Shown: positions 4,457 to 28,860 of the stretch, piece after piece
Numbering within the stretch: the stretch's first letter is position 1
Layout: the number at the start of each line of letters is the position of its first letter
Assembly: GCA_947585425.1 (NCBI GenBank)
Contig: CANPWZ010000001.1
Span: forward strand, 70,367 to 134,366
Direction of reading: 5' to 3'
Source: an uncultured Oscillospiraceae bacterium
GTDB taxonomy: Bacteria > Bacillota > Clostridia > Oscillospirales > Oscillospiraceae
Length of the DNA stretch: 64,000 nucleotides
Notes under the pieces: model-generated
The model's input: only the letters and a program-made list of their open reading frames with translations
Told to the model about the DNA's origin: nothing
The model's database searches: none
Made by a program: the position numbers and the translations under genes

Positions 4457-4491
4457 CAAAAAGAGCTTTAAACCACCTTATCGGAACGAAT

Positions 4492-6515: not shown

Positions 6516-6521
6516 ACGCGT

Positions 6522-7046: not shown

Positions 7047-7047
7047 T

Positions 7048-9080: not shown

Positions 9081-9220
9081 AAGGTTGCCTCCTTTGTAGG
9101 AATTTTCCTGTTTATAGGTTACTCCCCGCAAACCGGTTTGTCAAATTTTTTTGCGCCAAAAAACGGGCCGTTTTTTTGGGGGATTTTCATAATCCGGGGG
9201 CGGGCCGCCGCGAAAATGCC

Positions 9221-10159: not shown

Positions 10160-10314
10160 GGGCACACCCCCTCGGCCAAGGGTATGGCCCGCCTGTCCCC
10201 TTTAGAACGGACGGGCGTTTTTTCACGAAAATTTTTGAAAAAATAAAGGGTTTTTGCCCCCGGACGGTGTAATAGTAAACGTGAAACATCTTGCACGTTG
10301 AAGGAGGTCATGTG

Positions 10315-11319: not shown

Positions 11320-11320
11320 C

Positions 11321-11950: not shown

Positions 11951-12007
11951 ATGCGGAAAATTGTGATAAAACGGGCCTGTTTTGGCTAATATGCAGGGGG
12001 TGAGACC

Positions 12008-13789: not shown

Positions 13790-13794
13790 CGACC

Positions 13795-15099
13795 ATGAGC
13801 GAAAAGAAAAAGAACGGCAAAAAGCCGGAGACGGTGGCCATCCAGGTGAGCCCCGAGAAGCTGGAGGCGGCCAAACAGGAGCTCTCCAGGATGGTGGAGG
13901 GGGTGGCCGGCGGCGAGAAGCTGCTGGAGCTGGTGGACGCCGGCTACAAGAAGGGCAAGCTGTCCTCCGGCGAGCTGATGGAGGCCATGGACTCCCTGAA
14001 CCTGGAGACCGAGCAGTTCGACAAGATCTACGACGTGCTGGAGAACCTGGGCGTGGACACCGCGGAGGAGGAGGACTTCCCCACCGCTCTGGACGACGAT
14101 CTGGCCCCGCCCGTGGACGAGCTGGAGGAGCTGCCCGAGGAGGAGATCGTGGACCCCAACGCCATGCTGGACGCCTTCGCCATCGACGACCCGGTGCGGA
14201 TGTACCTGAAAGAGATCGGCAAGGTGGACCTGCTCACCCCGGAGCGGGAGGTGGAGCTGGCCCAGGTGATGGACGCGGGCAACGCCGCCAGAGAGCAGCT
14301 GGAGGAGCTGACCGCCGGGGGCGAGGAGGCGCCCGAGGAGGTCAGGGCCGAGCTGGACAAGGCCATCCGGGCCGGCGAGCGGGCCAAGCAGCAGCTGGCC
14401 GAGGCCAACCTCCGGCTGGTGGTGTCCATCGCCAAGCGGTATGTGGGCCGGGGGATGCTGTTCCTGGACCTGATCCAGGAGGGCAATCTGGGGCTCATCA
14501 AGGCGGTGGAGAAATTCGACTACACCAAGGGCTACAAGTTTTCCACCTACGCCACCTGGTGGATCCGGCAGGCCATCACCCGGGCCATCGCCGACCAGGC
14601 CCGGACCATCCGCATCCCGGTGCACATGGTGGAGACCATCAACAAGGTCATCCGGGTGAACCGGCAGCTTTTGCAGGAGCTGGGCCACGATCCCACCCCC
14701 GAGGAGACCGCCGCCGAGATGAATATGCCGGTGGAGAAGGTCCGGGAGATCCTGAAGATCGCCCAGGAGCCGGTGTCCATGGAGACCCCCATCGGCGAGG
14801 AGGAGGACTCCCACCTGGGCGACTTCATCGAGGACGAGAGCGCCTCCGAGCCCTCCGAGGTGGCCTCCTTCACCCTTTTGAAGGAGCAGCTGGTGGAGGT
14901 GCTGTCCACTCTGACCCCCCGGGAGGAGAAGGTATTGAAGCTCCGCTTCGGCATCGAGGACGGCCGCACCAGGACGCTGGAAGAGGTGGGCCGGGAGTTC
15001 AACGTCACCCGGGAGCGCATCCGCCAGATCGAGGCCAAGGCCCTGCGGAAGCTCCGCCACCCCAGCCGCTCCAAAAAGCTGAAGGACTTTTTGAACTGA
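13795..15099 (+). CDS. rpoD: Primary RNA polymerase sigma factor (SigA/RpoD)
   Basis: ATG at 13795 after SD GGAGGA. Region 2 ([51 protein letters not shown]) and region 4 ([20 protein letters not shown]). Confidence 0.97.
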
Positions 15100-15108
15100 G
15101 AGGACAGG

Positions 15109-15140
15109 AAAGAGCCGCCTGCGGAAGCAGGCGGCTCTTT
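15109..15140. terminator. Bidirectional terminator AAAGAGCCGCCTGC-GGAA-GCAGGCGGCTCTTT
   Basis: 14-bp stem between the convergent rpoD (stop at 15099) and the MBL gene (stop at 15143). Confidence 0.85.
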
Positions 15141-15142
15141 CG

Positions 15143-15958
15143 TTATTTCCGCTTTTTCGCGGGCGGCTGGCCGGCGTCGGACTCCTTGACGAAGATACCC
15201 ACCAGTTCCCCGGCGTCGGGATCGGCCAGGTCCAGCACGAACAGCCGCCCTTTCAGGGTGGGGATGGGGTAGAACACATATTCCTGGCTGCGCTTTTTGC
15301 CGATGAGGTCCAGACACTGGGCGAAGCGGTCCAGCTTGGATTTGGGGAACAGGTAGTCGAAGTGGGCCAGCAGGAAGTGGTCGAAGGGCACGTCTTTCAG
15401 CCTCTCCAGGGTCTTTTTGTAGTCCTCCAGGGAGCTCTCCGGGAAGAACAGGCAGGCCTGGGGGGAGACGGCGTCCCCGGCCAGCAGGAGGCCGCGCTCC
15501 CGGACGAGCAGGCCCAGGCTGCCGGGGGTGTGGCCGGGCAGGGCGATGACCTCGGCGGTGAGGCCGCCCAGGTCGATGACCGTGCCGGGAGCGATGGGGC
15601 GGACCCGGCTTTTGTCGGCGAAGTTGGGCACCATGTAGGAGAAGTCCATCCCCTGGGTCTCCTCCAGGATGGGCAGCTCGCTGAGGCCCACGTCCATCAG
15701 GGGGAAGTCGGCCTCCGACAGATAGACTCGGTCGAACTGGCAGTTGCCGCCCACGTGATCGAAGTGGCAGTGGCTGTTGATGACCATGGGCGCATGATCG
15801 GTGAGCCCGGCCACATAGGAGCGCAGGTCCCCGATCCCCATCATGGTGTCGTACAGGATGGCGCCGGTGGCCCCCGCCAGCAGGGTGCAGAAATTGCCCC
15901 GCCCGTCCCCGATGTGGAACACGCCCTCCATGACCTCTCTGTGGCTCAGCCCTTCCAT
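15143..15958 (-). CDS. MBL-fold metallo-hydrolase
   Basis: HCHFDHVGG zinc motif and LPGHTPGS. ATG at 15958 preceded by GGAGGG. Confidence 0.8.
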   Translation of the reverse strand: MEGLSHREVMEGVFHIGDGRGNFCTLLAGATGAILYDTMMGIGDLRSYVAGLTDHAPMVINSHCHFDHVGGNCQFDRVYLSEADFPLMDVGLSELPILEETQGMDFSYMVPNFADKSRVRPIAPGTVIDLGGLTAEVIALPGHTPGSLGLLVRERGLLLAGDAVSPQACLFFPESSLEDYKKTLERLKDVPFDHFLLAHFDYLFPKSKLDRFAQCLDLIGKKRSQEYVFYPIPTLKGRLFVLDLADPDAGELVGIFVKESDAGQPPAKKRK

Positions 15959-16035
15959 GCCGGTCCCTCCCCGCGTTTTGGGAAATGGTAGCACGGAAGA
16001 GGGGCGGCTGTCAAGCGGGAAGAGACGGGAAAGGC

Positions 16036-16064
16036 TTGAAACCGCCGGGGATCCGTGATAAACT
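16036..16064 (+). promoter_or_regulatory. Candidate promoter of the PucR-type regulator (TTGAAA - 17 nt - TAAACT, TGn extended -10)
   Basis: Hexamers and spacing read directly from sequence. 32 nt upstream of the ATG at 16096. Confidence 0.4.
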
Positions 16065-16095
16065 AAACGGAAAGACAGAGAGAGGAGCGAGGCGG

Positions 16096-17337
16096 ATGGA
16101 GCGGATGACCCCCGAGCGGCTGGGGCGGGCCAGGGACGAGATGTTCCGGGCCCTTCAGACCAAGACCCCCCTGCGGCAGTTTTTACAGATCGCCCACGAG
16201 GCCACCGGCCTCCAGTTCAGCCTGTGCAGCGCCAGCTTCGCGGTGCTGGCCGCCTGCCCCGACATGGACGACGAGACCAACCTGGTCACCTCCGGCGGCC
16301 GGCAGTTCGTGCGCTTCGGCGTGACCCTGGAGATGGACGAGAAGCGGCACGTGAAGCGCCTTTTGGAGAGCACCCGGCCCAGCGTGTCCAACGACCCCCG
16401 CTTCCCCTATCCCATCCTGTTCCAGGCCATCCGCATCAACCAGGCCATGGTGGCCTATCTTTTCTCCCCCGGCCGGCCGGAGGGCTTTTTCCCGGAGGAG
16501 CTGGAGCTGGTGGAGTACCTGGCCCAGGTGCTGTCCATCGAGATGCAGAAGCAGGACTTTTTTGCCTCCGAGAGCGGCGTGAAATACGAGTACTTCCTGC
16601 TGGAGCTGCTGGAGAGCCGTCTGAAGAGCGAGACCTCCGCCGTCCAGCGGCTGCACCAGCTGGGCCGCAGGCCCCAGCCCTATTACTACCTGGCGGAGTT
16701 CACCTTTGACGACGTGAGCTCCCGCCCCTCGGGCAGCTATTTCTTCGACCAGCTGCTCTCCCTGTTCCCCGACAGCCTGGTGGGGCTCATCAAGGGCCGG
16801 ATGTGCATGCTGCTGCCCAGGGGCCAGATCGGCGCCCTCACCCCCTGGGAGGAGGAGGCGCTGAAGAGCTTTTTGGAGTTCAACCATATGCGGGTCAGCT
16901 TCAGCGACCGATTCACCTCCCTGCTGGCCGCCCCCTATGCCTGGGAGCAGGCCCGCCGGACCGCGGCGGAGGGCTCCGGCGAGGAGCGGGTGCGGTACTA
17001 TGAGCAGGTCCGCCTCTACCACCTGCTGGACCGGGTGGGGGACAGCGAGCTGCTGCGCTCCATGATCCACCCGGACGTGGAGCTGCTCCGCCGGTACGAC
17101 GGGGAGCATAACACCCACTATCTGGACACCCTCTGGGCCTATCTCGACGCCAACCGCAGCGCCGCCCAGGCGGCCTCCGCCCTGTTCATCCACAAGAGCA
17201 CCTTCTTCTTCCGCATGGGCAAGATCGCCGAGCTGGTGGGGGACGACGTGATGCGGGACGGGGAGCGGCTGTTCGACTATGAGCTGTCCCTGCGGCTGCT
17301 GGAATACCTCCACCGGGGGAGCGACCAGGAACATTAG
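16096..17337 (+). CDS. PucR-family transcriptional regulator (uncharacterised N-terminal sensor region plus C-terminal HTH)
   Basis: C-terminal PucR-type HTH YLDTLWAYLDANRSAAQAASALFIHKSTFFFRMGKIAELVG. Start at MERMTPERL after SD GAGGAG. Confidence 0.75.
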   Translation: MERMTPERLGRARDEMFRALQTKTPLRQFLQIAHEATGLQFSLCSASFAVLAACPDMDDETNLVTSGGRQFVRFGVTLEMDEKRHVKRLLESTRPSVSNDPRFPYPILFQAIRINQAMVAYLFSPGRPEGFFPEELELVEYLAQVLSIEMQKQDFFASESGVKYEYFLLELLESRLKSETSAVQRLHQLGRRPQPYYYLAEFTFDDVSSRPSGSYFFDQLLSLFPDSLVGLIKGRMCMLLPRGQIGALTPWEEEALKSFLEFNHMRVSFSDRFTSLLAAPYAWEQARRTAAEGSGEERVRYYEQVRLYHLLDRVGDSELLRSMIHPDVELLRRYDGEHNTHYLDTLWAYLDANRSAAQAASALFIHKSTFFFRMGKIAELVGDDVMRDGERLFDYELSLRLLEYLHRGSDQEH

Positions 17338-17390
17338 ACAAATGTCTGAAAAGAGGCCGTATTTTATATAAAGCATTTGACTGCTGTCGG

Positions 17391-17426
17391 ATGACGAAAC
17401 GGGCAAAGAGAATTATAATCATAATT
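17391..17426 (+). promoter_or_regulatory. Candidate operon promoter (ATGACG - 17 nt - TATAAT) overlapped by inverted repeat AATTAT-AATC-ATAATT
   Basis: -10 TATAAT at 17414-17419. The 6-4-6 palindrome at 17411-17426 overlaps it. Lies in the only AT-rich stretch upstream of the operon. Confidence 0.4.
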
Positions 17427-17526
17427 GAATAGATTGCACAAAGGAGCGCGGCAAAACTCTGGTGTTTATGGGGACAACTCACGATTTTACCGGCGCTCCC
17501 GTGTGAGCGGGCCGCCGGAGGCCGGA

Positions 17527-17569
17527 GCGGGGGAGACCCGCCCGGAGCCCCCGGCGCTTTGCGTTTTTT
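17527..17569 (+). terminator. Terminator-like element inside the operon leader (GC hairpin then TTTGCGTTTTTT)
   Basis: GCGGGGG (17527-33) pairs with CCCCC(G)GC (17548-55), followed by a T6 run at 17564-69. Two more GC hairpins follow at 17601-17618 and 17628-17642. Confidence 0.35.
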
Positions 17570-17673
17570 CAGACGGCAGTCTCGGTTCGTTCGTAATTTG
17601 GCCGCGCGGGCGGCCGCAAACATAGAGGGTCCGGCGGACCCGGGCCCTCAAGGAGAAAACAGGAGGTAATGTT

Positions 17674-18621
17674 ATGGCATTCAAAGTGATGGGCGTCTGC
17701 GGCGGACGCAGAGACGGAAACAGCGAGATCCTGACGAAAGAGGCTTTGCTGGCCTGCCAGGAGCTGGGCGCGGAGATCACCTACGTCAACCTGAACGACT
17801 ACAAGATCCTGGACTGCACCGGCTGCACCCACTGCACCCAGGGGATGTTCATGAAGGGCGAGAACGTGGGCTGTGTGCTGAAGAACGCGGACGACAAGGA
17901 CAAGCTGATGCAGGCCATGTTCGAGAACGACGCCTTCATCTTCGCCGCCCCCACCTACGATCTGCAGGTGTCGGCCAACTTCACCCGGTTCATGCAGCGC
18001 TCCCTGGCCTATGAGACCGCCTTCCTGGAGAAGATCGGCGCCATCAAGCCCAAGCACCGCATCGCCGGCCTGATCACCACCGGCGGTTCCACCCGGGCGT
18101 GGATGTCCATGTCCCTGGAGAACATGCAGGCCGCCATGTTCACCTGCGACTTCAACGTGATCGACATGATCCTGGCCACCCGGGTCCCCGCCAAGGGCCA
18201 CGTGCTCACCCGGCCCGAGCTCATTGAGCGGGCCCACAAGATGGGCGAGAACATCATGCGCTCCCTGAGCAAGGATCCCAAGGACCGGGGCTGGGAGGGC
18301 GACCCCGACTTCGGCTGGTGCCCCCACTGCCACTCCAACTCCCTGTCCCTGGGCGAGCCCCAGTGGGACGGCACCTACTACAAGGTGGAGTGCCAGGTGT
18401 GCGGCTGCGGCGGCGTGCTGAAGGAAGAGGACGGCAAGTGGAAGTTCGTCATCGACCCGGAGAACGGCCACCTGAAGGACCGCACCACCGTGGCGGGCCG
18501 CGGCCTCCATCTGGACGAGATCGGCACCACCGAGGGCGGCTTCTACCGCGATCCCCACAACTTCGAGATCGTCAAGGAGAAGATGCCCCGCTACAAGGAA
18601 ATGAAGTACAAGACCGTGTAA
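17674..18621 (+). CDS. Iron-sulfur-flavoprotein-like FMN reductase (flavodoxin fold) with a Cys-rich C-terminal zinc-ribbon-like domain; candidate flavonoid ene-reductase
   Basis: SD AGGAGG. N-terminal KVMGVCGGRRDGNSE flavodoxin-like start, compact Cys motif C48-x2-C51-x2-C54-x12-C67, C-terminal WCPHCH...ECQVCGCGG. Confidence 0.6.
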   Translation: MAFKVMGVCGGRRDGNSEILTKEALLACQELGAEITYVNLNDYKILDCTGCTHCTQGMFMKGENVGCVLKNADDKDKLMQAMFENDAFIFAAPTYDLQVSANFTRFMQRSLAYETAFLEKIGAIKPKHRIAGLITTGGSTRAWMSMSLENMQAAMFTCDFNVIDMILATRVPAKGHVLTRPELIERAHKMGENIMRSLSKDPKDRGWEGDPDFGWCPHCHSNSLSLGEPQWDGTYYKVECQVCGCGGVLKEEDGKWKFVIDPENGHLKDRTTVAGRGLHLDEIGTTEGGFYRDPHNFEIVKEKMPRYKEMKYKTV

Positions 18622-18664
18622 GTCATCAGGCACAAGTTTACATAATCTTTTAGGAGGTAACACC

Positions 18665-20143
18665 ATGAAGCAACTGGAAACCGATGTCATCGTCGTGGCC
18701 GCGGGTCTGAGCGGTCTGGCCGCCTGCTGCGCCGCCGCCGAGGGAGGCGCCCGGGTCGTCTGCTTTGAAAAAGCCAGCACCACCGGCGGCGCCGCCAACA
18801 TGGGCATGGGCCCCCTGGGCGTGGGCTCCCGCATCCAGCGCGAGCACATGATCCCCCTGAGCCCCATCGAGGCCTTCCGTAAGCATATGTATTTCACCCA
18901 CTACCATGTGGACCCCCGCCTGGTGCGCGACTACTACTTCAAGTCCGGCGACACCATCGACTGGCTGTGCAACATGGGCGTGGAGTTCGTGGGCGTGCAG
19001 CGGGCCTTCGGCGCAGACGAGGCCACCCGCCCCTATTCCGACGGCGAGTTCACCTGGCACGTCTGCAAGCCCGAGGGCGGCGGCGTTCCCGGCCCCCGCG
19101 CCGCCTCCGGCATGATGAAGAAGATGACCGAGTACGCCCAGAGCCTGGGCGTGGAGTTCTACCTGGAGACCCCCGTGAAGAAGCTCATCCAGGAGGACGG
19201 CGCCGTGGTGGGCGTCATCGCCGTGGACAAGAACGGCGAGGAGATCGAGTGCCGCGCGCCCTCCACCATCGTGGCCACCGGCGGCTTCGGCGACAACCCG
19301 GAGATGATCAAGGAGTACACCGGCTTCGAGTTCGGCAAGACCATCTTCAACTTCGCCGTGCCCGGCATGAAGGGCGACGGCATGAAGATGTGCTGGGAGG
19401 CGGGCGCCGCCAAGACCCCCATCATCATGGAGATCATGTACCAGCTGCCCGACAACATGAACCACTTTATCATCGAGGGCGCCTTCCGTCAGCCCTGCCT
19501 GTGGGTGGACCGCAACGGCAACCGCTTCATGCCCGAGGATCAGATCGGCAACACCACCTTCACCGGCAACGCCATCTCCCACCTCCCCGGCAAAGTGGCC
19601 TTCTCCATTTTCGACAGCAAGGCCCTCAAGCGCTATAAGAAGCACGGGCCCGACATCATCTCCCACGTCCATCCCCACGACCTGTACGACCACTTCGACG
19701 AGCAGTGGGAGCGGGATTTGGCCGCCGGCTACGAGCCCATCGCCCAGGGCGACACCATCGAGGAGCTGGCCAAAAACGCCGGCATCGACGTGGACGGCCT
19801 GGTGGCCCAGGTGGAGGAGTACAACGCCATGTGCGACGCCGGCTACGACGAGCTGTTCGAGAAGAACCGCGCCTATATGCAGAAGATCGAGAAGGGCCCC
19901 TTCTACTGCTGCCGCCAGACCGTGGGCGCTTACGGCTCCCTGGGCGGCGTGAAGATCAACCACAAGATGGAGGCCGTGAACGAGGACGCCCGTCCCATCC
20001 CCGGCCTGTACTGCGTGGGCACCGACGCCTGCTCCATCTACGGCGACTCCTATCCCTTCGTGCTGTCCGGCAACACCATGGGCTTCTGCCTGAACTCCGG
20101 CCGCATCGCCGGTGAGAACGCCGCGGCAAAGGTGGGCTTCTGA
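18665..20143 (+). CDS. FAD-dependent oxidoreductase, fumarate reductase/succinate dehydrogenase flavoprotein-like (FAD_binding_2), soluble
   Basis: SD AGGAGG. Dinucleotide fold DVIVVAAGLSGLAACCAAAEGG...EKASTTGGAA and C-terminal IPGLYCVGTDA...GNTMGFCLNSGRIAGENAA. Confidence 0.8.
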   Translation: MKQLETDVIVVAAGLSGLAACCAAAEGGARVVCFEKASTTGGAANMGMGPLGVGSRIQREHMIPLSPIEAFRKHMYFTHYHVDPRLVRDYYFKSGDTIDWLCNMGVEFVGVQRAFGADEATRPYSDGEFTWHVCKPEGGGVPGPRAASGMMKKMTEYAQSLGVEFYLETPVKKLIQEDGAVVGVIAVDKNGEEIECRAPSTIVATGGFGDNPEMIKEYTGFEFGKTIFNFAVPGMKGDGMKMCWEAGAAKTPIIMEIMYQLPDNMNHFIIEGAFRQPCLWVDRNGNRFMPEDQIGNTTFTGNAISHLPGKVAFSIFDSKALKRYKKHGPDIISHVHPHDLYDHFDEQWERDLAAGYEPIAQGDTIEELAKNAGIDVDGLVAQVEEYNAMCDAGYDELFEKNRAYMQKIEKGPFYCCRQTVGAYGSLGGVKINHKMEAVNEDARPIPGLYCVGTDACSIYGDSYPFVLSGNTMGFCLNSGRIAGENAAAKVGF

Positions 20144-20144
20144 T

Positions 20145-22277
20145 ATGGTGACGCTGACTGTCAACGGCCAGGTCATCCAGGCCGCCGAGGGGCAGTCGGT
20201 CCTCCACGCGGCGCTGGCGGCGGGGGTGTACATCCCCCATCTGTGCGACCACCCTGACCTGGAGGCCAAGGGCGGCTGCCGCCTGTGCAGCGTGACGGTG
20301 GACGGCGGGGACGTGCCTGTCCCCGCCTGCACCACCACCGTGGCTGAAGGCATGGTGGTGGACAGCAGGACCGAGGCCGCGGAGCTGACCCGCCGCACCT
20401 CCATGGAGCTGATGCTGGCCACCCATCCCGCCGACTGCACCGGCTGCCCCAAATACGGCAAGTGCGAGCTGCAGAGCCTCTATCAGTACATGGGGGTCAA
20501 CGGACAGGACTGGCGCATGAAGTCCCGCCCCGTCCCCAACAACGACTCCAACCCCCTGATCTCCCACCTGTTCACCCGCTGCATCCGCTGCGGCCGGTGC
20601 ATCCGCGCCTGCCAGGACCTGCGGGGCGTGAAGGTGCTGGACTACGTCCGGGACGGCGTGGGCGTCCACGCCGGGGTGCCCGGGGGCAAGAGCCTGGTGG
20701 AGGCGGGCTGCCGCTTCTGCGGGGCCTGCATCGAGGTGTGTCCCACCGGCTCCATCGTGGACGCGGTAGGCGTGATGGAGAAACACCCCGCCTACGCCGA
20801 CAACGTGGTGCCCTGCCGGGCCGAGTGCCCCGCCCACACCAATATCCCGGAGTACATCCGGGCGGTCCGGGAGGGGAGACCCGGCGACGCGGTGGCCATC
20901 ATGCGGGAGAAGCTGACCTTCCCGCTGACTTTGGGCTACATCTGCAACCACCTGTGCGAGACGGGCTGCAAGCGCACCGACGTGAACGACCCCCTGTCCA
21001 TCCGCAACCTGAAACGCTTTGCCGTGGAGAACGACAAGGAGCAGGCTTGGAAGGACAAGGGATTTCGGAAACCCCGCACCGGCAAGCGGGTGGCGGTGGT
21101 GGGTTCCGGGCCCTGCGGCCTGACGGCGGCCTACTACCTGAACAAGCTGGGCCACGACGTGACCGTTTTCGAGAAGCGGCCCCAGCTGGGCGGCCCCATG
21201 ACCAGCGGCATCCCGGCCTACCGGCTGCCCATCGAGGGGGTCAACGCCGAGATCCAGTACATCATCGACTCCGGCGTGAAGTACGAGGTCAACCACGAGG
21301 TGTCCGATGCGGCGGCCCTGAAGAAGGACTACGACGCCGTGCTGGTGGCGGTGGGCGTGTCCAAGGGCAAGAAGTTGGGCTTCCTGCCGGGGGCCGATTT
21401 CGACCAGGTGTACACCGCCATCGACGTGCTGGCCGACCTGCGGGCGAACAAGGACATTTCCTATCTGGGCCAGACGGTGTGCGTGATCGGCGGCGGCTCG
21501 GTGGGGTTCGACGCGGCCCGGTCCCTGGTGCGGAAGGGCCTGACGGTGAACCTGGCCTGCATCGAGCCGGCGGACAAGATATTGGCGGACAAGGAGGACC
21601 AGGTGGAGGGCGCCGAGGAGGGCGTGAACATTCTGCCGGGGCGGTCCTTCGAGGAGATCGAGGGCAGCCAGAAGCAGGTCACGGGTCTGCGGGTCCACAC
21701 GGTGAAGTCCTCCACCTATGACCGGGCCACGGGCAAGGTGACGGAGGTGGCCGTGGAGGGGAGCCAGACGGTGATCCCCTGCGACAGCGTGATCTTCGCC
21801 ACGGGGCAGTACACCGGGCTCCAGGACTTTGAGAACTTCGGCATCGAGCTGAACCGGATGGGCTATCCCATCGACCCGGAGACGGGGAAAAGCGGCTTCA
21901 GGACCAGCGTGGAGGGCATCTTCGCGGCGGGCGACGCCATCACGGGGATCAGCTTCGTGATCAAGGCCATCGCGTCGGGCCGGGAGGTGACGTCGGTCAT
22001 CGACAAGTACCTGGGCGGCGACGGGGACATCGAGGAGACCCTGGTGGAGCGTACGGCCGATCCCCACATCGGGGAGTTCCCTGGGTTCGGGACGCTGCCG
22101 CGCATCGAGATGGACGTGGTGGACCCCGCGACCCGTGTCAAGAACGGGGACGAGAACGTCTACAAGACCTATACCTGCGAGCAGGCCCGCTGCGAGGCCC
22201 AGCGCTGCCTCCAGTGCGATCTGCGGCTCCAGCTGGAGACGGTGAAGCTCTGGAACGAATACGGAGGTGGCGAGTGA
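20145..22277 (+). CDS. Fusion oxidoreductase: NuoG/HydA-type N-terminus ([2Fe-2S], His-ligated [4Fe-4S], 2x[4Fe-4S]) plus GltD/NfnB-like NAD(P)H-FAD module
   Basis: ATG 1 nt after the upstream stop. Motifs CDHPDLEAKGGCRLC, HPADCTGCPKYGKCELQ, CIRCGRCIRAC, CRFCGACIEVCP, then CRAECPAHTNIPEY, LCETGCKR, VAVVGSGPCGLTAAYYL and GIPAYRLP. Confidence 0.8.
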   Translation: MVTLTVNGQVIQAAEGQSVLHAALAAGVYIPHLCDHPDLEAKGGCRLCSVTVDGGDVPVPACTTTVAEGMVVDSRTEAAELTRRTSMELMLATHPADCTGCPKYGKCELQSLYQYMGVNGQDWRMKSRPVPNNDSNPLISHLFTRCIRCGRCIRACQDLRGVKVLDYVRDGVGVHAGVPGGKSLVEAGCRFCGACIEVCPTGSIVDAVGVMEKHPAYADNVVPCRAECPAHTNIPEYIRAVREGRPGDAVAIMREKLTFPLTLGYICNHLCETGCKRTDVNDPLSIRNLKRFAVENDKEQAWKDKGFRKPRTGKRVAVVGSGPCGLTAAYYLNKLGHDVTVFEKRPQLGGPMTSGIPAYRLPIEGVNAEIQYIIDSGVKYEVNHEVSDAAALKKDYDAVLVAVGVSKGKKLGFLPGADFDQVYTAIDVLADLRANKDISYLGQTVCVIGGGSVGFDAARSLVRKGLTVNLACIEPADKILADKEDQVEGAEEGVNILPGRSFEEIEGSQKQVTGLRVHTVKSSTYDRATGKVTEVAVEGSQTVIPCDSVIFATGQYTGLQDFENFGIELNRMGYPIDPETGKSGFRTSVEGIFAAGDAITGISFVIKAIASGREVTSVIDKYLGGDGDIEETLVERTADPHIGEFPGFGTLPRIEMDVVDPATRVKNGDENVYKTYTCEQARCEAQRCLQCDLRLQLETVKLWNEYGGGE

Positions 22278-22843
22278 TGGAGGAGAGACTGTTGGACCTG
22301 CCGGAGACCTGCTGCCCTGTGGACGAGCTGCTGAAATACGTCCGGGGCCACAAATGCCTGGACTGCGGCAAGTGCGTCTTTGGCTATGAGGGCGCCGCCC
22401 AGCTGGAGATGACCCTGAACGACATCACCATGAAGAAAAGCCGCGGCTCCGACATGGACCAGCTCCGCAAGCTGTGCGGCCTGATGAAGACCCAGGCGCT
22501 GTGCGAGGACGGCGTGGAGCTGGCCGATACCGCCCTGGCGGTGATGGAGAAATACGCCGACGAGTTCGCCCAGCATGTGGCCAAGCGGAGCTGCAAGGCC
22601 GGCGTGTGCAAGCGGTTCGTCACCTACCACATCCTGGCCGACAAGTGCGTCGGCTGCGGCGACTGCATGGACGCCTGCGAGGACGATGCCATCCAGGGCC
22701 GCGCCAAATTCATCCATGTCATCGACCAGGATGAGTGCACCCAGTGCGGCAAGTGCAAGGAGGCCTGCGAGGAGGACGCCATCGTGGTGGCCGGCGCCAT
22801 CAAGCCCCGGTGCCCGCCCAGGCCCATCCCCTGCCGCCGCTGA
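22277..22843 (+). CDS. Fe-S protein: NuoF-type [4Fe-4S] binding region plus 2x[4Fe-4S] ferredoxin domain, without an NADH/FMN domain
   Basis: ATGA start/stop overlap at 22275-22279. Motifs CLDCGKC...C, then CVGCGDCMDAC and CTQCGKCKEAC. Confidence 0.7.
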   Translation: MEERLLDLPETCCPVDELLKYVRGHKCLDCGKCVFGYEGAAQLEMTLNDITMKKSRGSDMDQLRKLCGLMKTQALCEDGVELADTALAVMEKYADEFAQHVAKRSCKAGVCKRFVTYHILADKCVGCGDCMDACEDDAIQGRAKFIHVIDQDECTQCGKCKEACEEDAIVVAGAIKPRCPPRPIPCRR

Positions 22844-22860
22844 CGGCGGCCCACATTCCT

Positions 22861-22888
22861 TTGGGATCTGATTTAAGATCAATATAAA
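22861..22888 (+). promoter_or_regulatory. Weak candidate internal promoter (TTGGGA - 16 nt - TATAAA) ahead of the carrier-protein module
   Basis: Sits in the only AT-rich gap inside the operon (22844-22919) and follows a GC hairpin that overlaps the upstream stop codon. Confidence 0.3.
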
Positions 22889-22919
22889 ACCAACAAATTT
22901 TTTAAGGAGGTCATTTATC

Positions 22920-23159
22920 ATGGAAGAGCGTACCAATGTTTATGAGAAGATCGTGGAGCGGCTGACCGCCATGCTGGGCGCGAAGGACTACACCGAGGCC
23001 ACCGCCTTTGCCGACCTGGGCATGAAGTCCGTGAACTATTCCTCTATGATCAACGTGCTGGAGGACGAGTTCGACGTGGAGATCCCCTTCATGGATTTCC
23101 GCCGCAAGGCCACCATCGGCGAGGCTGTCGATTTTGTTTGCAATCTGATCGACGGCTGA
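22920..23159 (+). CDS. Acyl/peptidyl carrier protein (79 aa) with a non-canonical attachment motif
   Basis: SD AAGGAGG. ACP/DltC-like helix pattern ADLGMKS(37)VNYSSMINVLEDEFDVEIPFMDF. The Ser is in the canonical position but is preceded by K rather than D. Confidence 0.7.
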   Translation: MEERTNVYEKIVERLTAMLGAKDYTEATAFADLGMKSVNYSSMINVLEDEFDVEIPFMDFRRKATIGEAVDFVCNLIDG

Positions 23160-23174
23160 GAAAGGAGTACCTGA

Positions 23175-24941
23175 ATGGAATCCAAAGGTATGTCCAACGG
23201 CCATGAGATCTTCTCTGAGAAGAGGGTCATGAAGGGGGAGGAGATCGAGGTCTTCTACCGCCAGGCCCGCACTCCCGTGGACCCCGAGGAGGGGCTGGAC
23301 CTCTCCAAACTGGAGGGCATCGCCTCCACCGCCCACGGCTTCTGCGCCAAGTTCAACCAGCGCACCTATATGACCGAGGACGGCCTCATCTGCGAGCAGG
23401 ACGTCCCCGTCATCCTCCGGGACGGCACCAAGATCTACACCGACATCTACCGCCCCAACACCACCGAGAAGGTCCCCGTGCTGATCTCCTGGAGCTACTA
23501 CGGCAAGCGCCCCGGCGACGGCATGAGCGAGTGGCAGGTGATGGGCGTGGCCCCCGGCACCATCTCCACCATGGCCAAGTTCGAGTCCCCCGACCCCGGC
23601 TTCTGGTGCCACAACGGCTATGCCATCGCCAACGTTGACCCCCGCGGCACCGGCCACTCCGAGGGCGACATCGACATGTTCGGCTCCATCGACGCCCAGG
23701 ACGGCTACGACTTCATCGAGTGGGTCGCCCAGCAGCCCTGGTGTTCCGGCAAGGTGGGCATGGGCGGCAACTCCTGCGTGGCCATGACCCAGGTCCGCAT
23801 CGCCGCCACCCAGCCCCCCCATCTGGCCTGCATCGCCCCCTGGGAGGCCACCTGCGACATCTACCGCGAGTCCATCTACGAGGGCGGCATCCCGGCCCTG
23901 AGCTTCAACGAGTTCATCGTGGCCTCCCTCACCGGCCCCAACAAGATCGACGACCAGGTGGAGAACGGCCGCCGCTATCCCCTGATGAACGGCTACTGGG
24001 AGGACAAGATCCCCGACTTCAAGAAGATCCGCATCCCCGTGTACGCCTGCGCGTCCTGGCAGCATTTCCATCTCCACGGCTCCTTCAACTTCTTCCGCAA
24101 GATCCGCTCCACCAAGAAGTGGATGCGGGCCCACCGGGAGCAGGAGTGGCCCGATCTGTACAACACCGCCCACGCCATGGACCTCAAGAACTTCTACGAT
24201 CGGTTCCTGAAGGACGTCCACAACTGCTTCGAGATGACCCCCCGCTATCGGATCGAGGTCATGGACGCCTACGACTACGACTATCAGACCGACCGGCCTG
24301 AAAAGGAGTTCCCCCTGGCCCGGACCCAGTACAAGAAGCTGTACCTCAACGCCGCCGACGGCTCCCTCAACTGGGAGAATCCCGCGGTGGAGAGCAAGGT
24401 CAGCTATGAGTCCAACACCGAGCAGGTCAACTTCGACATCAAGTTCGAGGAGGACACCGAGATCACCGGCTACATGAAGCTCCGCATGTGGGTGGAGGCC
24501 GACGGTCACGACGACATGGACCTGTTCATCACCATCAAGAAGCTGGACGAGGACGGCAACTGGCTGCCCACCAGCATCCTGGGCGAGCCGCACCCCGGCA
24601 CTTGGGGCAAGCTGCGCGTGTCCCACCGGGAGCTGGATCCCAAGCTGTCCACCGACTTTGAGCCCGTCCTGTCCCACAAGCGGGAGCTGAAGCTGAAGAA
24701 GGGCGAGATCGTCCCCGTGGACATCGCCCTGGTGCCCACCAGCTGGATCTGGCACAAGGGCCAGCAGCTCCGGGTGGAGGTGGCCGGCCGCTACATCCGC
24801 GAGGGCTGGTTCGAGCCGCTGACCTGGGAGACCGACAACCACGGCCAGCACATCATCCACACCGGCGGGCAGTATGAGAGCTATCTCCAGATCCCCGTCA
24901 TCCCGCCCAAGTATAAGGCGGGCGACTACACTTATCGCTGA
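23175..24941 (+). CDS. CocE/NonD-family alpha/beta serine hydrolase (Peptidase_S15-like plus C-terminal jelly-roll), cytoplasmic
   Basis: SD AAAGGAG. Motifs YGKRPGD, NVDPRGTGHSEGD and nucleophile elbow VGMGGNSCVAMTQ (compare CocE GVSYLGVTQ). About 588 aa, no signal peptide. Confidence 0.75.
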   Translation: MESKGMSNGHEIFSEKRVMKGEEIEVFYRQARTPVDPEEGLDLSKLEGIASTAHGFCAKFNQRTYMTEDGLICEQDVPVILRDGTKIYTDIYRPNTTEKVPVLISWSYYGKRPGDGMSEWQVMGVAPGTISTMAKFESPDPGFWCHNGYAIANVDPRGTGHSEGDIDMFGSIDAQDGYDFIEWVAQQPWCSGKVGMGGNSCVAMTQVRIAATQPPHLACIAPWEATCDIYRESIYEGGIPALSFNEFIVASLTGPNKIDDQVENGRRYPLMNGYWEDKIPDFKKIRIPVYACASWQHFHLHGSFNFFRKIRSTKKWMRAHREQEWPDLYNTAHAMDLKNFYDRFLKDVHNCFEMTPRYRIEVMDAYDYDYQTDRPEKEFPLARTQYKKLYLNAADGSLNWENPAVESKVSYESNTEQVNFDIKFEEDTEITGYMKLRMWVEADGHDDMDLFITIKKLDEDGNWLPTSILGEPHPGTWGKLRVSHRELDPKLSTDFEPVLSHKRELKLKKGEIVPVDIALVPTSWIWHKGQQLRVEVAGRYIREGWFEPLTWETDNHGQHIIHTGGQYESYLQIPVIPPKYKAGDYTYR

Positions 24942-24956
24942 TAGGAGGAATGTGCC

Positions 24957-25955
24957 ATGGGTATGATGGATGAGATCCTGCGGAAGGCCAAGGCCGATCC
25001 GCAGATCGTGGCGTTCCCCGAGATCGGCGAGGAGAAGATCCTGAAGGCGGCGCAGGAATGCGCCGCCCAGGGGATCTGCAAGCCCATGCTGGTGGGCAAG
25101 GGCGAGGAGATCAAGGCCGCCGTGGCCCAGTTCGGCATCGATATGACCGGCATCTCCGTGTTCGACACCACCGATGAACACGCCTGCGAGGAGGTCTTCA
25201 ACGCCTACGGCGCGGTGAATACCGAGATGAGCGCCAAGGCCATCCGCCGCAAGGCCAAGGACGATATGTATGTTGCCCTGATGATGCTGGCCATCGGCAA
25301 GGTGGACGTGATGTTCGCCGGCATGAGCCACACCACCGGCGAGGTCATCTGGGGCGGCCAGTCCATCGTGGGCCTGAAAGAAGGCGTCACCACCGTGTCC
25401 AGCATCGGCGTGTCCCAGATCCCCGGCTGGAACGGCAGCGAGGGCGACCTGCTCATCATCGGCGACAGCGCCGTGTGCGTCAATCCCGACCCCGCCGATC
25501 TGGCCTCCATCGCCGTGTCCGCCTGCGACACCGCCCGGGACCTGCTGGGCTGGGAGCCCCGCTGCGCCATGGTGTCCTACTCCACCGACGGCAGCGCCGA
25601 GAGCGAGCTGGTGGACAAGGTGCGCAAGGGCGTGGAGATCGCCCGGCAGATGCGGCCCACCTACGCCATCGACGGCGAGTTCCAGCTGGACGCCGCCATC
25701 GTCCCCGCCGTGGCCGCCAAGAAGGTCAAGCGGGAGAGCCCGGTGGCCGGCAAGGCCAACATCATCATCTGGCCCGACCTGAACGTGGGCAACATCGGCG
25801 TGAAGCTGCTGCAGATCTTCGGCCATGCCGACGCCTATGGCCCCGTGCTCCAGGGCTTCAAGAAGATCGTGTGCGACTGCTCCCGCAGCGCCCCCGTGTC
25901 CGAGATCGTGGGCAATGTGGCCATCGCCGGCGTCCGCGCCCAGAACAATAAGTGA
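24957..25955 (+). CDS. Phosphate acyltransferase of the Pta/Ptb family
   Basis: SD AGGAGG. Motifs IVAFPEIGEEKILKAA, DGEFQLDAAIVPAVAAKK, VAGKANIIIWPDLNVGNIGVKLLQ, GPVLQGF. Confidence 0.85.
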   Translation: MGMMDEILRKAKADPQIVAFPEIGEEKILKAAQECAAQGICKPMLVGKGEEIKAAVAQFGIDMTGISVFDTTDEHACEEVFNAYGAVNTEMSAKAIRRKAKDDMYVALMMLAIGKVDVMFAGMSHTTGEVIWGGQSIVGLKEGVTTVSSIGVSQIPGWNGSEGDLLIIGDSAVCVNPDPADLASIAVSACDTARDLLGWEPRCAMVSYSTDGSAESELVDKVRKGVEIARQMRPTYAIDGEFQLDAAIVPAVAAKKVKRESPVAGKANIIIWPDLNVGNIGVKLLQIFGHADAYGPVLQGFKKIVCDCSRSAPVSEIVGNVAIAGVRAQNNK

Positions 25956-25958
25956 CCC

Positions 25959-27059
25959 GTGAAGGTATTTGCCATCAATCCCGGCTCCACCTCCACCAAG
26001 ATCGCCCTGTTCGAGGACGATCAGAAGCTGTTTCAAAAGAACGTGGACCACGACGCCGGGGAACTCAAAAAGTTTAAAGAGATCGCCGACCAGCTCCCCT
26101 TCCGCATGGAGACCATCCTGGCGGAGGTGGAGGCGGCGGGGATCGACCTGTCCCAGGTGGACGCCTGGGCCGCCAGGGGCGGCGGACTGGTGGGCCTGGT
26201 CAGCGGCGTGTACGCCATCAACGACGTGATGCTGCGGGACGCCCGGGCCTGCGTCACCCGGCACCCCAACACCCTGGGGGTGCAGATCGCCCTGGAGCTG
26301 CAAAAGCGGTACGGCGGGGAGATGTTCTGCGTCAATCCCCCCGACGTGGACGAGCTGGACGACGTGGAGCGGATCACCGGCTTCCACGAGGTCTTTCGCC
26401 AGAGCAAGGGCCACCCCCTGAACCAGAAGGAGAACTGCATCCGCTACGCCGCCGCCCAGGGCAGACAGTATGAGGACATGAACCTCATCTGCTGCCACAT
26501 CGGCGGGGGCGTGTCGGTGGCGGCCCATCGGAAGGGGCAGCTCTGCTGCTGCAACGACGCCCTCAACGGCGACGGCCCCATGGCCCCCACCCGGGCCGGC
26601 TGGGTCCCCGCCACCGACGTGATCCGCATGAGCTTTTCCGGCAAATTCACCGAGAAGGAGCTCATCGACCGGGTGATGAAGCACGGCGGCCTGGTGGACC
26701 ACCTGGGCACCGCCGACGCCCGGGAGATCGTGGAGCGCATCCAAAAGGGCGATAAGTACGCCAAGCTGGTGTACGACGCGTTCATCCGCCAGCTGGCCAA
26801 GGCGGTGGGCGGCTGCGCCGCCGTCCTGGAGGGCAAAGTGGACGCCATCATCTTCACCGGCGGCATCGCCCACGACAAATACCTGGTGGACGAGTTGAGC
26901 CGGTACGTGGGCTGGATCGCCCCCATCTCCGTCCAGGCGGGCGAGTTCGAGATGGAGGCCCTGGCCGCCGGCGCCATCCGCGCCCTGAAGGGCGAGGAGC
27001 GCGTCAGGCAGTACACCGGGGTGCCCGTTTTCGAGAACTTCGACCACTTGAAAAGCTGA
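25959..27059 (+). CDS. Butyrate-kinase-family acyl kinase (ASKHA)
   Basis: GTG start 3 nt after the Pta/Ptb stop. Motifs KVFAINPGSTSTKIALFED, CCHIGGGVSVAAH, IIFTGGIAHDKYLV. Confidence 0.85.
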   Translation: MKVFAINPGSTSTKIALFEDDQKLFQKNVDHDAGELKKFKEIADQLPFRMETILAEVEAAGIDLSQVDAWAARGGGLVGLVSGVYAINDVMLRDARACVTRHPNTLGVQIALELQKRYGGEMFCVNPPDVDELDDVERITGFHEVFRQSKGHPLNQKENCIRYAAAQGRQYEDMNLICCHIGGGVSVAAHRKGQLCCCNDALNGDGPMAPTRAGWVPATDVIRMSFSGKFTEKELIDRVMKHGGLVDHLGTADAREIVERIQKGDKYAKLVYDAFIRQLAKAVGGCAAVLEGKVDAIIFTGGIAHDKYLVDELSRYVGWIAPISVQAGEFEMEALAAGAIRALKGEERVRQYTGVPVFENFDHLKS

Positions 27060-27097
27060 AAAAAGCGCGGGAGCCGCGAGGCTCCCGCGCTTTCATT
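27060..27097. terminator. Operon terminator AGCGCGGGAGCC-GCGA-GGCTCCCGCGCT
   Basis: 12-bp GC stem directly after the kinase stop, with an A-run upstream and TTCATT downstream. Confidence 0.8.
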
Positions 27098-27139
27098 GAA
27101 AAAATCGCTAATTCCGCGGGAATTATTAACGATTTTTTG

Positions 27140-27168
27140 TTGCATTTTCCAAACTGATATGTTACAAT
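27140..27168 (+). promoter_or_regulatory. Promoter TTGCAT - 17 nt - TACAAT for the transporter gene
   Basis: Hexamers and spacer counted directly from sequence. Confidence 0.6.
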
Positions 27169-27174
27169 GTACCC

Positions 27175-27349
27175 AGCGTATCCTGATGTCCCGGAGTTGA
27201 GAAAGAGAGCCGCGCCCCTTTGCGGCGGGTTTTCGGGAGTGAGGAGCGAAAAAAGGAGAGGAGAGCGCAAACAGTCCGGGGCGGCTCTGCCGCCGGTCCT
27301 TGGAGAGGGACCTGAAAAACTACTACACTACTTATCAGAGGTGTTATTC
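27175..27349 (+). promoter_or_regulatory. Structured 5' leader of about 175 nt of the MFS transporter (class unknown)
   Basis: Nested helices: TCCCG (27198-27202) / CGGGA (27233-27237) enclosing CCGC/GCGG; CCGG(G)GCGGC/GCCGCCGG hairpin at 27275-27295; GGTCC-N8-GGACC hairpin at 27295-27312. Purine-rich tract at 27235-27266. No ATG-initiated ORF after the predicted TSS. Confidence 0.35.
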
Positions 27350-28696: not shown

Positions 28697-28730
28697 GACC
28701 TGCCCTACGTTTGCCTGTCATCTCTTTACA

Positions 28731-28765
28731 AGAGGCGCCGCCCGGCCGGGCGGCGCCTCTTTGTG
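28731..28765 (+). terminator. Intrinsic terminator AGAGGCGCCGCCCGG/CCGGGCGGCGCCTCT followed by TTTGTG
   Basis: 15-nt perfect inverted repeat, 35 nt after the transporter stop. Confidence 0.75.
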
Positions 28766-28796
28766 CCCGGAAGGCGCAAAAATATCCAAACGGCAG

Positions 28797-28825
28797 TTGA
28801 CATGAGGGGGACAAATTTGTATAAT
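28797..28825 (+). promoter_or_regulatory. Perfect consensus promoter TTGACA - 17 nt - TATAAT with TG immediately upstream of the -10
   Basis: Read directly from sequence. 36 nt upstream of the chalcone isomerase ATG. Confidence 0.75.
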
Positions 28826-28860
28826 TGTATCAGCACTACCATACGAAAGGAGTTTATATT

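Follow-up and report, generated by a model that had tools for sequence, protein, structure and literature searches.

A FAD_binding_2 enzyme encoded with a poly-iron-sulfur module in an uncultured Oscillospiraceae bacterium: a candidate NADH-driven reductase of chalcones

Where does a flavin adenine dinucleotide (FAD) enzyme that is encoded beside its own iron-sulfur (Fe-S) proteins obtain its electrons, and to which compound does it pass them? This question is raised by positions 18,665 to 22,843 of a stretch of DNA of 64,000 nucleotides (nt), here called the window, from an uncultured Oscillospiraceae bacterium (GenBank assembly GCA_947585425.1, contig CANPWZ010000001.1). Three adjacent genes in this block encode a FAD_binding_2 enzyme of 492 amino acids (aa), hereafter FADred, a 710-aa protein in which Fe-S domains are fused to a GltD-like module, and a 188-aa Fe-S protein of the NuoF type. 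The original prediction, made from the DNA letters, described them as a soluble fumarate-reductase-type FAD enzyme with an NAD(P)H and poly-Fe-S electron-input module, possibly bifurcating electrons and acting on a chalcone or another enone. We consider it reasonably likely that the block specifies a cytosolic three-protein ene-reductase, driven by NADH and wired by Fe-S clusters, which converts a chalcone or flavanone into a dihydrochalcone and takes the place of Fcr/EnoR. To our knowledge, OYE-type Fcr/EnoR is the only known enzyme for the step from chalcone or flavanone to dihydrochalcone.

FADred is a member of the FAD_binding_2 family (PF00890, 181.3 bits versus a gathering score of 20.4, residues 7-464 of 492). 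It starts directly in the FAD-binding fold and contains no signal peptide, haem, FMN_bind or Fe-S domain. The top sequence matches in PDB are flavocytochrome c3 fumarate reductases (E-value 2e-39) and urocanate reductase (9e-25), and at the superfamily level the label "fumarate-reductase-type" is correct. In the alignment with flavocytochrome c, however, His is replaced by Tyr259, Arg by Thr297, His by Tyr423 and Arg by Val466. We take the two His and one Arg of Fcc3 (at Tyr259, Tyr423 and Val466 of FADred) to bind fumarate and the other Arg (at Thr297) to be the proton donor; the Fcc3 motifs that hold these residues are presumably QAHPT, TTRDK, VHHTMGG and NRLGGN. Tyr259, Thr297 and Tyr423 are invariant in 22 aligned homologues, with Val466 conservatively replaced (consensus Ile), and positions 259, 297 and 423 are near-invariant (at least 97%) in 78 sequences from the loci described below. 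With each of the four positions for fumarate binding or catalysis changed, FADred is, judged by its active site, not a fumarate reductase; the same residues led us to reject a urocanate reductase identity, and FADred was not found to group closely with a bona fide fumarate reductase. Fcc3/Ifc3 and UrdA share with FADred the FAD_binding_2 fold, solubility and an attached, dedicated electron-input module. They differ in that their input is tetrahaem or FMN_bind and they are periplasmic or respiratory, whereas FADred is predicted to be cytosolic with NADH/Fe-S input and has Tyr, Thr, Tyr and Val in place of the carboxylate-binding His/Arg and the Arg proton donor.

The top curated family for FADred is vinylphenol reductase VprA (NF053717), which matches it from end to end at 303.7 bits versus an equivalog cutoff of 600 bits, followed among NCBIfam models by TcuA (173 bits). 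By these scores, VprA is the closest characterised relative of FADred rather than its orthologue. Among 1.84 billion cluster representatives searched, VprA-like proteins with 40-53% identity to FADred form a wide radiation, and each one tested reaches 260-320 bits with the VprA model. VprA of Lactiplantibacillus plantarum is, like FADred, a single chain (about 480-490 aa) with FAD_binding_2 only and neither haem nor FMN_bind, and it reduces a C=C bond conjugated to a 4-hydroxyphenyl ring, as found in chalcone. Reduction of a vinyl group conjugated to such a ring is, by analogy, chemistry that fits a chalcone's Cα=Cβ bond. VprA differs in having no Fe-S/GltD partners and a gene that stands alone with a LysR regulator (PMC10295242), and the substrate of FADred is probably larger (chalcone or flavanone).

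Between the last letter of the FADred stop codon TGA (20143) and the next ATG (20145) lies a gap of 1 nt; 20145-22277 encodes exactly 710 aa, which confirms the coordinates, plus strand and spacing reported originally. Pfam domains Fer2_4, NADH-G_4Fe-4S_3, Fer4_Nqo3, Fer4_20 and Pyr_redox_2 are present in the 710-aa protein together with the string GIPAYRLP, consistent with the predicted fusion of a NuoG/HydA-like Fe-S N-terminus with a GltD/NfnB-like module. Residues 1-219 match HydA/HydA1 (8a6t_A, 8e-40), and residues 223-694 match 9bov_A (3e-100), 9n5u_A and 8oh5_C (E-values from 1e-89 to 1e-100); among solved structures, the A subunits of NfnABC and StnABC (9BOV, 9N5U, 8OH5) are its closest relatives. 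Ligands could be assigned for one [2Fe-2S] cluster (C34/45/48/62), one His-ligated [4Fe-4S] cluster (H94, C98/101/107), two ferredoxin-type [4Fe-4S] clusters (C146-156 and C189-199) and two [4Fe-4S] clusters of the GltD/NfnB domain (C224, 228, 267, 271, 275, 683, 688 and 691), and the FAD and nicotinamide Rossmann folds come after the GltD/NfnB cluster region. The His ligand is conserved, and the ligand cysteines are 100% conserved except for C48 (99%) and C683 (81%). The tripeptide YRR, which follows the second Rossmann strand in StnA, NfnA and NfnB, is an invariant C-I/L-E in the 710-aa family (here C472-I-E474). According to the classical Rossmann rule, this replacement favours NADH over NADPH, so the NAD(P)H input proposed originally can be narrowed: the 710-aa subunit more likely prefers NADH.

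The third open reading frame (ORF), read from ATG 22277, encodes a 188-aa protein with the NADH_4Fe-4S domain (PF10589, 48 bits) and two Fer4 motifs. It aligns only to residues ~419-581 of HydB, StnB and NfnB, i.e. their last ~160 residues, in agreement with the earlier description of a protein that keeps only the NuoF [4Fe-4S] region plus 2x[4Fe-4S]. Its conserved cysteines comprise the ligands of an N3/B1-type [4Fe-4S] cluster (C27/30/33/76) and of two further [4Fe-4S] clusters (C124-134 and C154-164). Moreover, conserved H100, C106, C111 and C186 fit a Zn site described for NfnB (PMC11829005), and the protein probably carries such a site. In some genomes it occurs in a 363-aa form, whose N-terminal part is a degenerate remnant with no Complex1_51K or SLBB match. 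The 188-aa protein looks like a B subunit of the Bfu type that has lost its nucleotide site. The ATGA overlap claimed for the junction with the 710-aa gene was not found: the sequence reads GTGATGG, with the stop TGA at 22275-22277, and the start is either ATG 22277 (1-nt overlap, GGAGG 9 nt upstream) or the in-frame GTG 22274 (4-nt GTGA overlap). Readthrough between the two module genes was considered and rejected: an in-frame stop was found in 9 loci, fewer than the roughly one third that chance would give, and both TAG and TAA occur. The three ORFs combine a GC content of 0.87-0.94 at third codon positions with 0.42-0.45 at second positions and have close homologues in more than 2000 database proteins, and for these reasons they are not chance ORFs.

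To examine the conservation of this arrangement, 79 loci from one-genome-per-species collections were compared, with synteny counts based on loci with enough flanking sequence. They come from Lachnospiraceae, Oscillospiraceae, Enterocloster, Butyrivibrio, Clostridium, Proteocatella, Tissierella, an Anaerovibrio and a metagenome-assembled genome (MAG) of Fusobacteriaceae. FADred is 74-99% identical across these loci (99% in L073, an uncultured rabbit-gut Oscillospiraceae MAG), and 50% of its positions are invariant in 78 sequences. The Fe-S/GltD gene is the next gene downstream of FADred, on the same strand and within 600 nt, in all 68 of 68 loci, and the number of loci with a NuoF-type gene is 68. 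In addition, module and enzyme occur as single polypeptides. In the 925-aa protein P0243, a NuoF remnant with a B1-type cluster and 2x[4Fe-4S] is fused to a FADred homologue (35% identity to the 188-aa protein, E 5e-34; 51% to FADred), and in P0255 and P0256 the NADH_4Fe-4S domain is fused to the FAD enzyme. P0361 (L087, 8001-11099) is a 1032-aa FAD_binding_2 enzyme with an inserted ferredoxin and a GltD-like NAD(H)/FAD module (32% identity, E 2e-65), in which the string "ACLE" is also found; it may work by itself as an ene-reductase on a CoA-ester or steroid-like substrate. Other relatives of FADred carry FMN_bind in place of the Fe-S/GltD modules, and this variety of fusions indicates that the input module is interchangeable in the FADred clade. 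The 68/68 synteny and the Rosetta-stone fusions make a physical complex feeding FADred likely, as the original prediction of a soluble FAD_binding_2 enzyme in a multi-subunit complex with its own nicotinamide/poly-Fe-S module had supposed.

Several observations accompany these loci. The neighbours of P0361 in L087 are MaoC-type hydratases, three SDRs and CoA-transferase fragments, and the glycerol genes and ABC transporters in Lachnospiraceae loci are unrelated neighbours. FADred is unusually conserved: it is about 78-84% identical to its distant relatives in Lachnospiraceae, Clostridium and Negativicutes, with only 50-60% for its operon partners, and 21-37% of the positions of these partners are invariant versus 50% in FADred.

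The genes around the block point to flavonoids. The protein encoded upstream of FADred has a single PDB match, F. plautii FLR (7D38, E 1.2e-29, residues 4-288). His271, Ile275, Trp149 and Ser147, which in F. plautii FLR hold the flavone A/C rings and the flavin, all align in this protein and are invariant in 61 family members, with FLR Gly106 and Asp103 not conserved in the FLR-like family. By homology, it is a member of the FLR family, only distantly related to the F. plautii enzyme. CxxCxxC..C and CPHC..CxxC motifs are invariant in the 61 FLR-like sequences and also occur in FLR itself (7D38); we take them to resemble an iron-sulfur flavoprotein cluster motif and a zinc ribbon. No metal site is mentioned in the main text of the FLR paper, and loss of an Fe-S cluster could be the reason why purified FLR needs artificial FMNH2. 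FLR was assayed with NADH, Fre and free flavin mononucleotide (FMN), and its physiological electron donor is still unknown according to a review of August 2026 (PMC13515148). An FLR-family gene lies upstream of the block in 56 of 66 loci, and the Fe-S module may be the physiological donor of FLR. It is not there only for FLR, given that two loci with the block (L055 and L058) have no FLR-like gene.

The window also encodes a bacterial chalcone isomerase (CHI), and the island that surrounds the block thus holds both an FLR-family gene and CHI. Of the bacterial flavone-degradation set (FLR, CHI, Fcr/EnoR, Phy), the other two families are missing from the island: by Pfam, it lacks both an OYE-type Fcr and a DAPG_hydrolase gene, and a tblastn search for Phy-family sequences gave 0 matches in the whole window. 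In F. plautii, flr adjoins chi, and an flr-fcr-phy operon is known from both C. butyricum and C. ljungdahlii; the FADred/Fe-S block stands where fcr stands in this order. Genes of the phloretin hydrolase (Phy) family directly flank the block in 9 of the 79 loci, and the four of these nine that were scanned with Pfam gave DAPG_hydrolase matches of 237-270 bits. In L084, the order is FeS/GltD, a NuoF::FADred fusion, Phy, DUF1097 and an FLR-like gene. In L055 (Clostridium frigoriphilum, 3424-18893), the block is part of the series CtfAB-BKACE-3HCDH-regulator-Phy-FADred-FeS/GltD-NuoF-SDR-cyclase-MFS, and in L086 (1-10016) block and Phy-family gene lie within a similar cluster, each being a complete set for phloroglucinol degradation; the genes around the block in these two loci are CtfAB, BKACE/TAL, 3HCDH, SDR/PGR, cyclase/DPGC and MFS. 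The SDR, cyclase, BKACE, 3HCDH and CtfAB correspond to the phloroglucinol-degradation cluster characterised in C. scatologenes (PMC10470551). L055 also has a sigma-54 activator with PAS domains. With phloroglucinol genes and Phy around the block, the product of FADred would most simply be an acylphloroglucinol, a dihydrochalcone such as phloretin. Phy splits phloretin-type dihydrochalcones, giving phloroglucinol. The neighbourhood with FLR-family, CHI and Phy genes and the contexts of L055 and L086 thus support the original suggestion of a chalcone or enone as acceptor, which we infer as the substrate from these directly observed associations.

The block does not end at the third gene. The original prediction delimited the three genes correctly and overlooked a gene for an acyl carrier protein (ACP) that follows immediately at 22920-23159 and also matches NCBIfam ACP models. 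ACP homologues were found in 42 of 80 sequences searched, with the attachment residue Ser37 invariant, and the ACP gene is always directly before a CocE/NonD gene or between DUF35 and the Pta-like gene. In the window, it precedes a CocE/NonD protein (PDB match 3ib3, 6.6e-102) with a conserved G-N-S nucleophile motif, a Pta-like protein that scores 267 bits against NCBIfam phosphotransacetylase, under the cutoff of 310, and an acyl kinase of the butyrate kinase family. A phosphopantetheinyl transferase (PPTase) is often near this module, as are DUF1097 and a gene with a metallo-beta-lactamase (MBL) fold. CocE occurs in 11 loci and a thiolase-like+DUF35 pair in 31, with both in 2, and the two are largely alternatives. 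The identification of the thiolase-like partner as PhlC was dropped, as BbsB, archaeal DUF35-associated thiolases and PhlC (E 6e-13) all lie at much the same distance from it. Acylation and deacylation of phloroglucinol by thiolase+DUF35 enzymes is known (PhlC/PhlB, PDB 5M3K), but these are only remote relatives, and the relation of the pair to PhlACB is one of analogy only.

The ACP module is present in 27 of the 39 fully flanked loci and Phy in 5 of them, and ACP, CocE, thiolase and the Pta-like gene are found in 0 of the 9 Phy-containing loci. This mutual exclusion beside the block suggests that both do the same job, namely deacylating the phloroglucinol ring. The composition of the ACP module suggests that it would keep the acyl group as a thioester and convert it to an acyl phosphate and then ATP; we infer both the direction of the module and the ATP yield from sequence only.

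On the reading that we favour, NADH would be oxidised at the FAD of the GltD/NfnB-like domain in the 710-aa subunit. Single electrons would pass through the six Fe-S clusters of this subunit and then the three [4Fe-4S] clusters of the 188-aa remnant, and arrive at the FAD of the 492-aa VprA-like enzyme. FADred would reduce a phenolic enone at its C=C bond, the likeliest conversion being that of a chalcone (or of a flavanone with ring opening) to a dihydrochalcone. Upstream in the pathway, the FLR-family enzyme would convert flavone to flavanone, maybe with electrons from the same Fe-S module, and CHI would open the ring. Downstream, the acyl group of the dihydrochalcone would be split off with release of phloroglucinol without Phy, the CocE/NonD enzyme would move the acyl group to ACP, the Pta-like enzyme would pass it to phosphate, and the butyrate-kinase-like enzyme would make ATP. 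Compared with the FLR-CHI-Fcr/EnoR-Phy pathway of flavone degradation, the OYE/4Fe-4S enzyme Fcr/EnoR would be replaced by the FAD_binding_2 plus Fe-S/GltD complex and, in the window, Phy by the ACP/CocE/Pta-like/kinase module. In full-text searches, in which most subscription journals are uncovered, we found no published description of a FAD_binding_2 enzyme fed by a NuoG/GltD/NuoF-derived Fe-S module or of an ACP-dependent alternative to Phy. Each part belongs to a family already described, and the logic of the pathway has precedents; what is new is how the parts are combined and the role proposed for them.

A number of observations weigh against this reading. Homologues of the 710-aa protein (53-65% identity) occur with a small NADH_4Fe-4S protein (143-298 aa) alone in housekeeping contexts (L080-L083), and the module can evidently work without the FAD enzyme. 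It appears from these pairs that the two subunits form an autonomous, uncharacterised family of NADH-linked Fe-S flavoenzymes that was recruited to this block. CHI is found in 0 of the 79 related loci, and neither Phy nor the ACP module is present in 7 loci with full flanks. Four Enterocloster-type loci (L019, L032, L057 and L074) have a gene for a 692-aa OYE + Pyr_redox_2 enzyme similar to Fcr/EnoR/DZNR between the FLR-like and FADred genes (e.g. 7879-9957 in L074), so the FADred step may differ from that of Fcr, and the two reductases may have different substrates. None of the classical degraders of flavonoids (E. ramulus, F. plautii, C. butyricum, C. ljungdahlii) is represented among the 79 loci. 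An AlphaFold2 model of FADred built from the 22-sequence alignment had a mean predicted local distance difference test score of 58.6, with the capping domain below 50; it was not used and supports neither the active site nor docking on structural grounds. Finally, the substrates may instead be non-flavonoid acylphloroglucinols, vinylphenols or hydroxycinnamates. As a separate observation, the stand-alone pair in L082 adjoins a weak DAPG_hydrolase match.

The stand-alone pairs, which have no FAD enzyme nearby, are also an argument for supposing that the 710-aa and 188-aa proteins are an autonomous NADH:ferredoxin (or ferredoxin:NAD+) oxidoreductase that is merely co-expressed with FADred. Such a module would balance the redox pool or reduce a diffusible carrier without a physical complex, while FADred and FLR would be fed by free ferredoxin, flavodoxin or reduced flavin, and FLR is indeed active in vitro with free FMNH2. 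We regard this arrangement as unlikely, because P0243, P0255, P0256 and P0361 join both module types covalently to FADred homologues, the Fe-S/GltD gene adjoins FADred without exception, and the genes are translationally coupled through the 1-nt gap and the overlap. Flavin-based bifurcation, in which NADH at the GltD-like FAD would send one electron to FADred and one uphill to ferredoxin so that double-bond reduction would conserve energy as in Bcd-Etf or CarCDE, is likewise given only a small probability. The GltD-like domain is homologous to NfnB/NfnL, which have a bifurcating FAD (4ylf_B, 5jca_L), the block has many clusters (1 [2Fe-2S] and 8 [4Fe-4S]), and on textbook thermodynamics the gap of about 300 mV between NADH and enone/alkane couples would be large enough. 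However, the site where Bfu-family enzymes (StnABC/NfnABC/HydABC) bifurcate electrons is a B1-FMN-C1 flavobicluster (PMC11829005). The 710-aa protein has the NuoG/HydA-type N-terminus and GltD-like FAD domain of a Bfu A subunit, and the 188-aa protein corresponds to the C-terminal ~160 residues of the B subunit including the B1-type cluster and 2x[4Fe-4S], but it has no FMN/NAD(H)-binding domain (Complex1_51K), and a NuoE-like C subunit with the C1 [2Fe-2S] is absent, all island ORFs belonging to other families. On this gene content, a Bfu-type mechanism is excluded for the block, and the bifurcation raised in the original prediction found no support. The block further differs from Bfu complexes in having no formate-dehydrogenase-like domain and an organic-substrate reductase as its terminal partner. 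Of the NfnSL large subunit, the GltD-like domain and cluster cysteines are present and YRR is changed to C-I-E; the island has no FNR-like FAD/[2Fe-2S] small subunit for NAD(H) (NfnA/NfnS-like), and a ferredoxin gene is missing from it too. Where module and enzyme are fused, the 2x[4Fe-4S] unit lies directly against the FAD enzyme, suggesting a wire more than a ferredoxin exit. In a more elaborate scheme, energy would be conserved twice: a bifurcating NfnSL-type chalcone reductase would reduce ferredoxin with NADH and also serve FLR, and the dihydrochalcone would be cleaved by acyl transfer to the ACP in place of hydrolysis, through CocE/NonD or, elsewhere, a PhlC/PhlB-like thiolase+DUF35 pair, with phosphorolysis and the kinase turning this retro-Friedel-Crafts C-C cleavage into ATP. 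This scheme is rather improbable in our view.

The remaining alternatives concern the substrate. FADred might reduce an ACP-bound enoyl thioester such as p-coumaroyl-ACP, formed from chalcone or via the kinase and the Pta-like enzyme, in a loop like that of caffeate respiration. ACP, PPTase, the Pta-like enzyme and the kinase do accompany the block in the 27 of 39 loci, and VprA-type chemistry suits 4-hydroxycinnamoyl groups. Yet 12 loci with full flanks have the block without ACP, including all five with Phy, and ACP is always tied to CocE or thiolase/DUF35 and never to the FADred gene, making this substrate very unlikely. Least probable of all, to the point that we give it hardly any weight, is that FADred is simply an orthologue of a fumarate, urocanate or vinylphenol reductase, the last forming 4-ethylphenol. 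The top PDB and NCBIfam matches would lead to such an assignment, but the fumarate-binding and proton-donor residues are all replaced, the VprA score is far from the equivalog cutoff, and there is no phenolic acid decarboxylase nearby, the context being one of flavonoid and phloroglucinol genes.

Other FAD_binding_2 systems offer partial precedents for the Fe-S-wired reductase proposed here. Tricarballylate dehydrogenase TcuAB pairs a FAD_binding_2 enzyme with a distinct Fe-S protein, TcuB, which is a membrane protein and oxidises its flavoprotein instead of reducing it. In the hydroxycinnamate reductase HcrAB, the FAD_binding_2 enzyme is paired with HcrA, a flavodoxin-like FMN reductase protein, and differs in that HcrB has NADH/FMN domains of its own. 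The respiratory flavin reductases secreted by Eggerthella, Holdemania and Sutterella, including resveratrol and cinnamate reductases (bioRxiv 10.1101/2022.12.26.521950), belong to the same PF00890 radiation in gut bacteria and act on dietary phenolics; most of them have signal peptides and receive electrons from a membrane chain, whereas FADred has predicted cytosolic NADH/Fe-S partners. The Etf and glutamate-synthase-like genes of the equol cluster, of unproven role, are a conceptual parallel only.

The block lies in an island whose GC content is slightly below that of its flanks (window ~65%), and intergenic gaps do not exceed 76 nt across 17674-27059 (Table 1). The remaining genes of the window are housekeeping genes such as mutS2, uvrC, the dcw cluster, ftsZ and IMPDH. 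MBL-fold homologues (33-52% identity) recur near the block in many other loci, and PucR-type genes adjoin it in most. The PucR-type regulator and the GltD-like domain had given rise to the idea of purine/pyrimidine catabolism, which was dropped as the neighbours gave no support. A promoter-like site is located in the AT-rich 336-nt gap 3' of the regulator gene and is followed by a 5' leader of about 250 nt (17420-17673), in which a terminator-like hairpin stands between this site and the first gene. The hairpin may be an attenuator or riboswitch of a new type, and 0 Rfam families match the leader. The real starts of the PucR-type regulator and the MFS transporter are probably downstream of 15985 and 27167, respectively. 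With a perfect consensus promoter directly upstream, CHI is probably a separate transcription unit that starts at ATG 28861 and not at TTG 28825. Far from the island, an FMN riboswitch is located directly upstream of a riboflavin transporter gene.

Table 1. Positions of the island, its genes and signals, other features of the window, and module loci in other genomes.
Feature	Position	Strand	Evidence or remark
dnaG-sigA	12008-15099		left of the island
Strong terminator	15108-15141		after dnaG-sigA
Island, 14.5 kb	15143-29694		between dnaG-sigA and pseudouridine synthase/yqfD/phoH
MBL-fold protein, island left edge	15143-15994	-	PF00753, 55 bits
PucR-type transcription regulator	15985-17337	+	PF13556 HTH_30, 50 bits
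Promoter-like site ATGACG-17-TATAAT upstream of operon	17391-17419	+	10/12 match
Terminator-like hairpin and T-run in operon 5' leader	17543-17561	+	
FLR-family FMN ene-reductase-like protein, 315 aa	17674-18621	+	PDB match 7D38
FADred, FAD_binding_2 enzyme, 492 aa	18665-20143	+	PF00890
Fe-S/GltD fusion, 710 aa	20145-22277	+	Pfam and PDB matches
NuoF/HydB C-terminal + ferredoxin protein, 188 aa	22277-22843	+	PF10589 and Fer4
ACP, 79 aa	22920-23159	+	PF00550, 29.2 bits vs cutoff 20.8
CocE/NonD-family alpha/beta hydrolase, 588 aa	23175-24941	+	PF02129 and PF08530
Phosphate acyltransferase, Pta/Ptb family	24957-25955	+	PF01515, 290 bits
Butyrate-kinase-family acyl kinase	25959-27059	+	NCBIfam butyrate kinase, 412 bits vs cutoff 222
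MFS transporter	27167-28696	+	PF07690
Perfect sigma-70 consensus promoter TTGACA-17-TATAAT before CHI gene	28797-28825	+	12/12 match
Bacterial CHI, 277 aa from ATG 28861	28861-29694	+	PF18232 Chalcone_N, 184 bits
FMN riboswitch	60908-61028	+	RF00050, 113.7 bits
ECF-type riboflavin transporter S component	61023-61796		after FMN riboswitch
ACP-centred module	window 22920-27059; L036 14243-18504; L065 4336-8922		
Stand-alone pairs	L080 9001-11595; L081 9001-11571; L082 4309-7125; L083 9001-12023		without FAD enzyme

Flavonoid breakdown by gut and rumen Clostridia shapes the phenolics that reach the host, and its enzymology is incomplete. The block is a candidate for two of the gaps, the electron donor of FLR and a second dihydrochalcone-forming enzyme, in the genomes of 79 species. 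If the proposed role is true, an NADH/poly-Fe-S module of Bfu/Nfn descent would be an added input mode for FAD_binding_2 reductases. The replacement of Phy by ACP, Pta-like enzyme and kinase suggests that ATP may be harvested from the C-C cleavage step, and metagenomic surveys limited to FLR, CHI, Fcr and Phy would overlook this ACP route.

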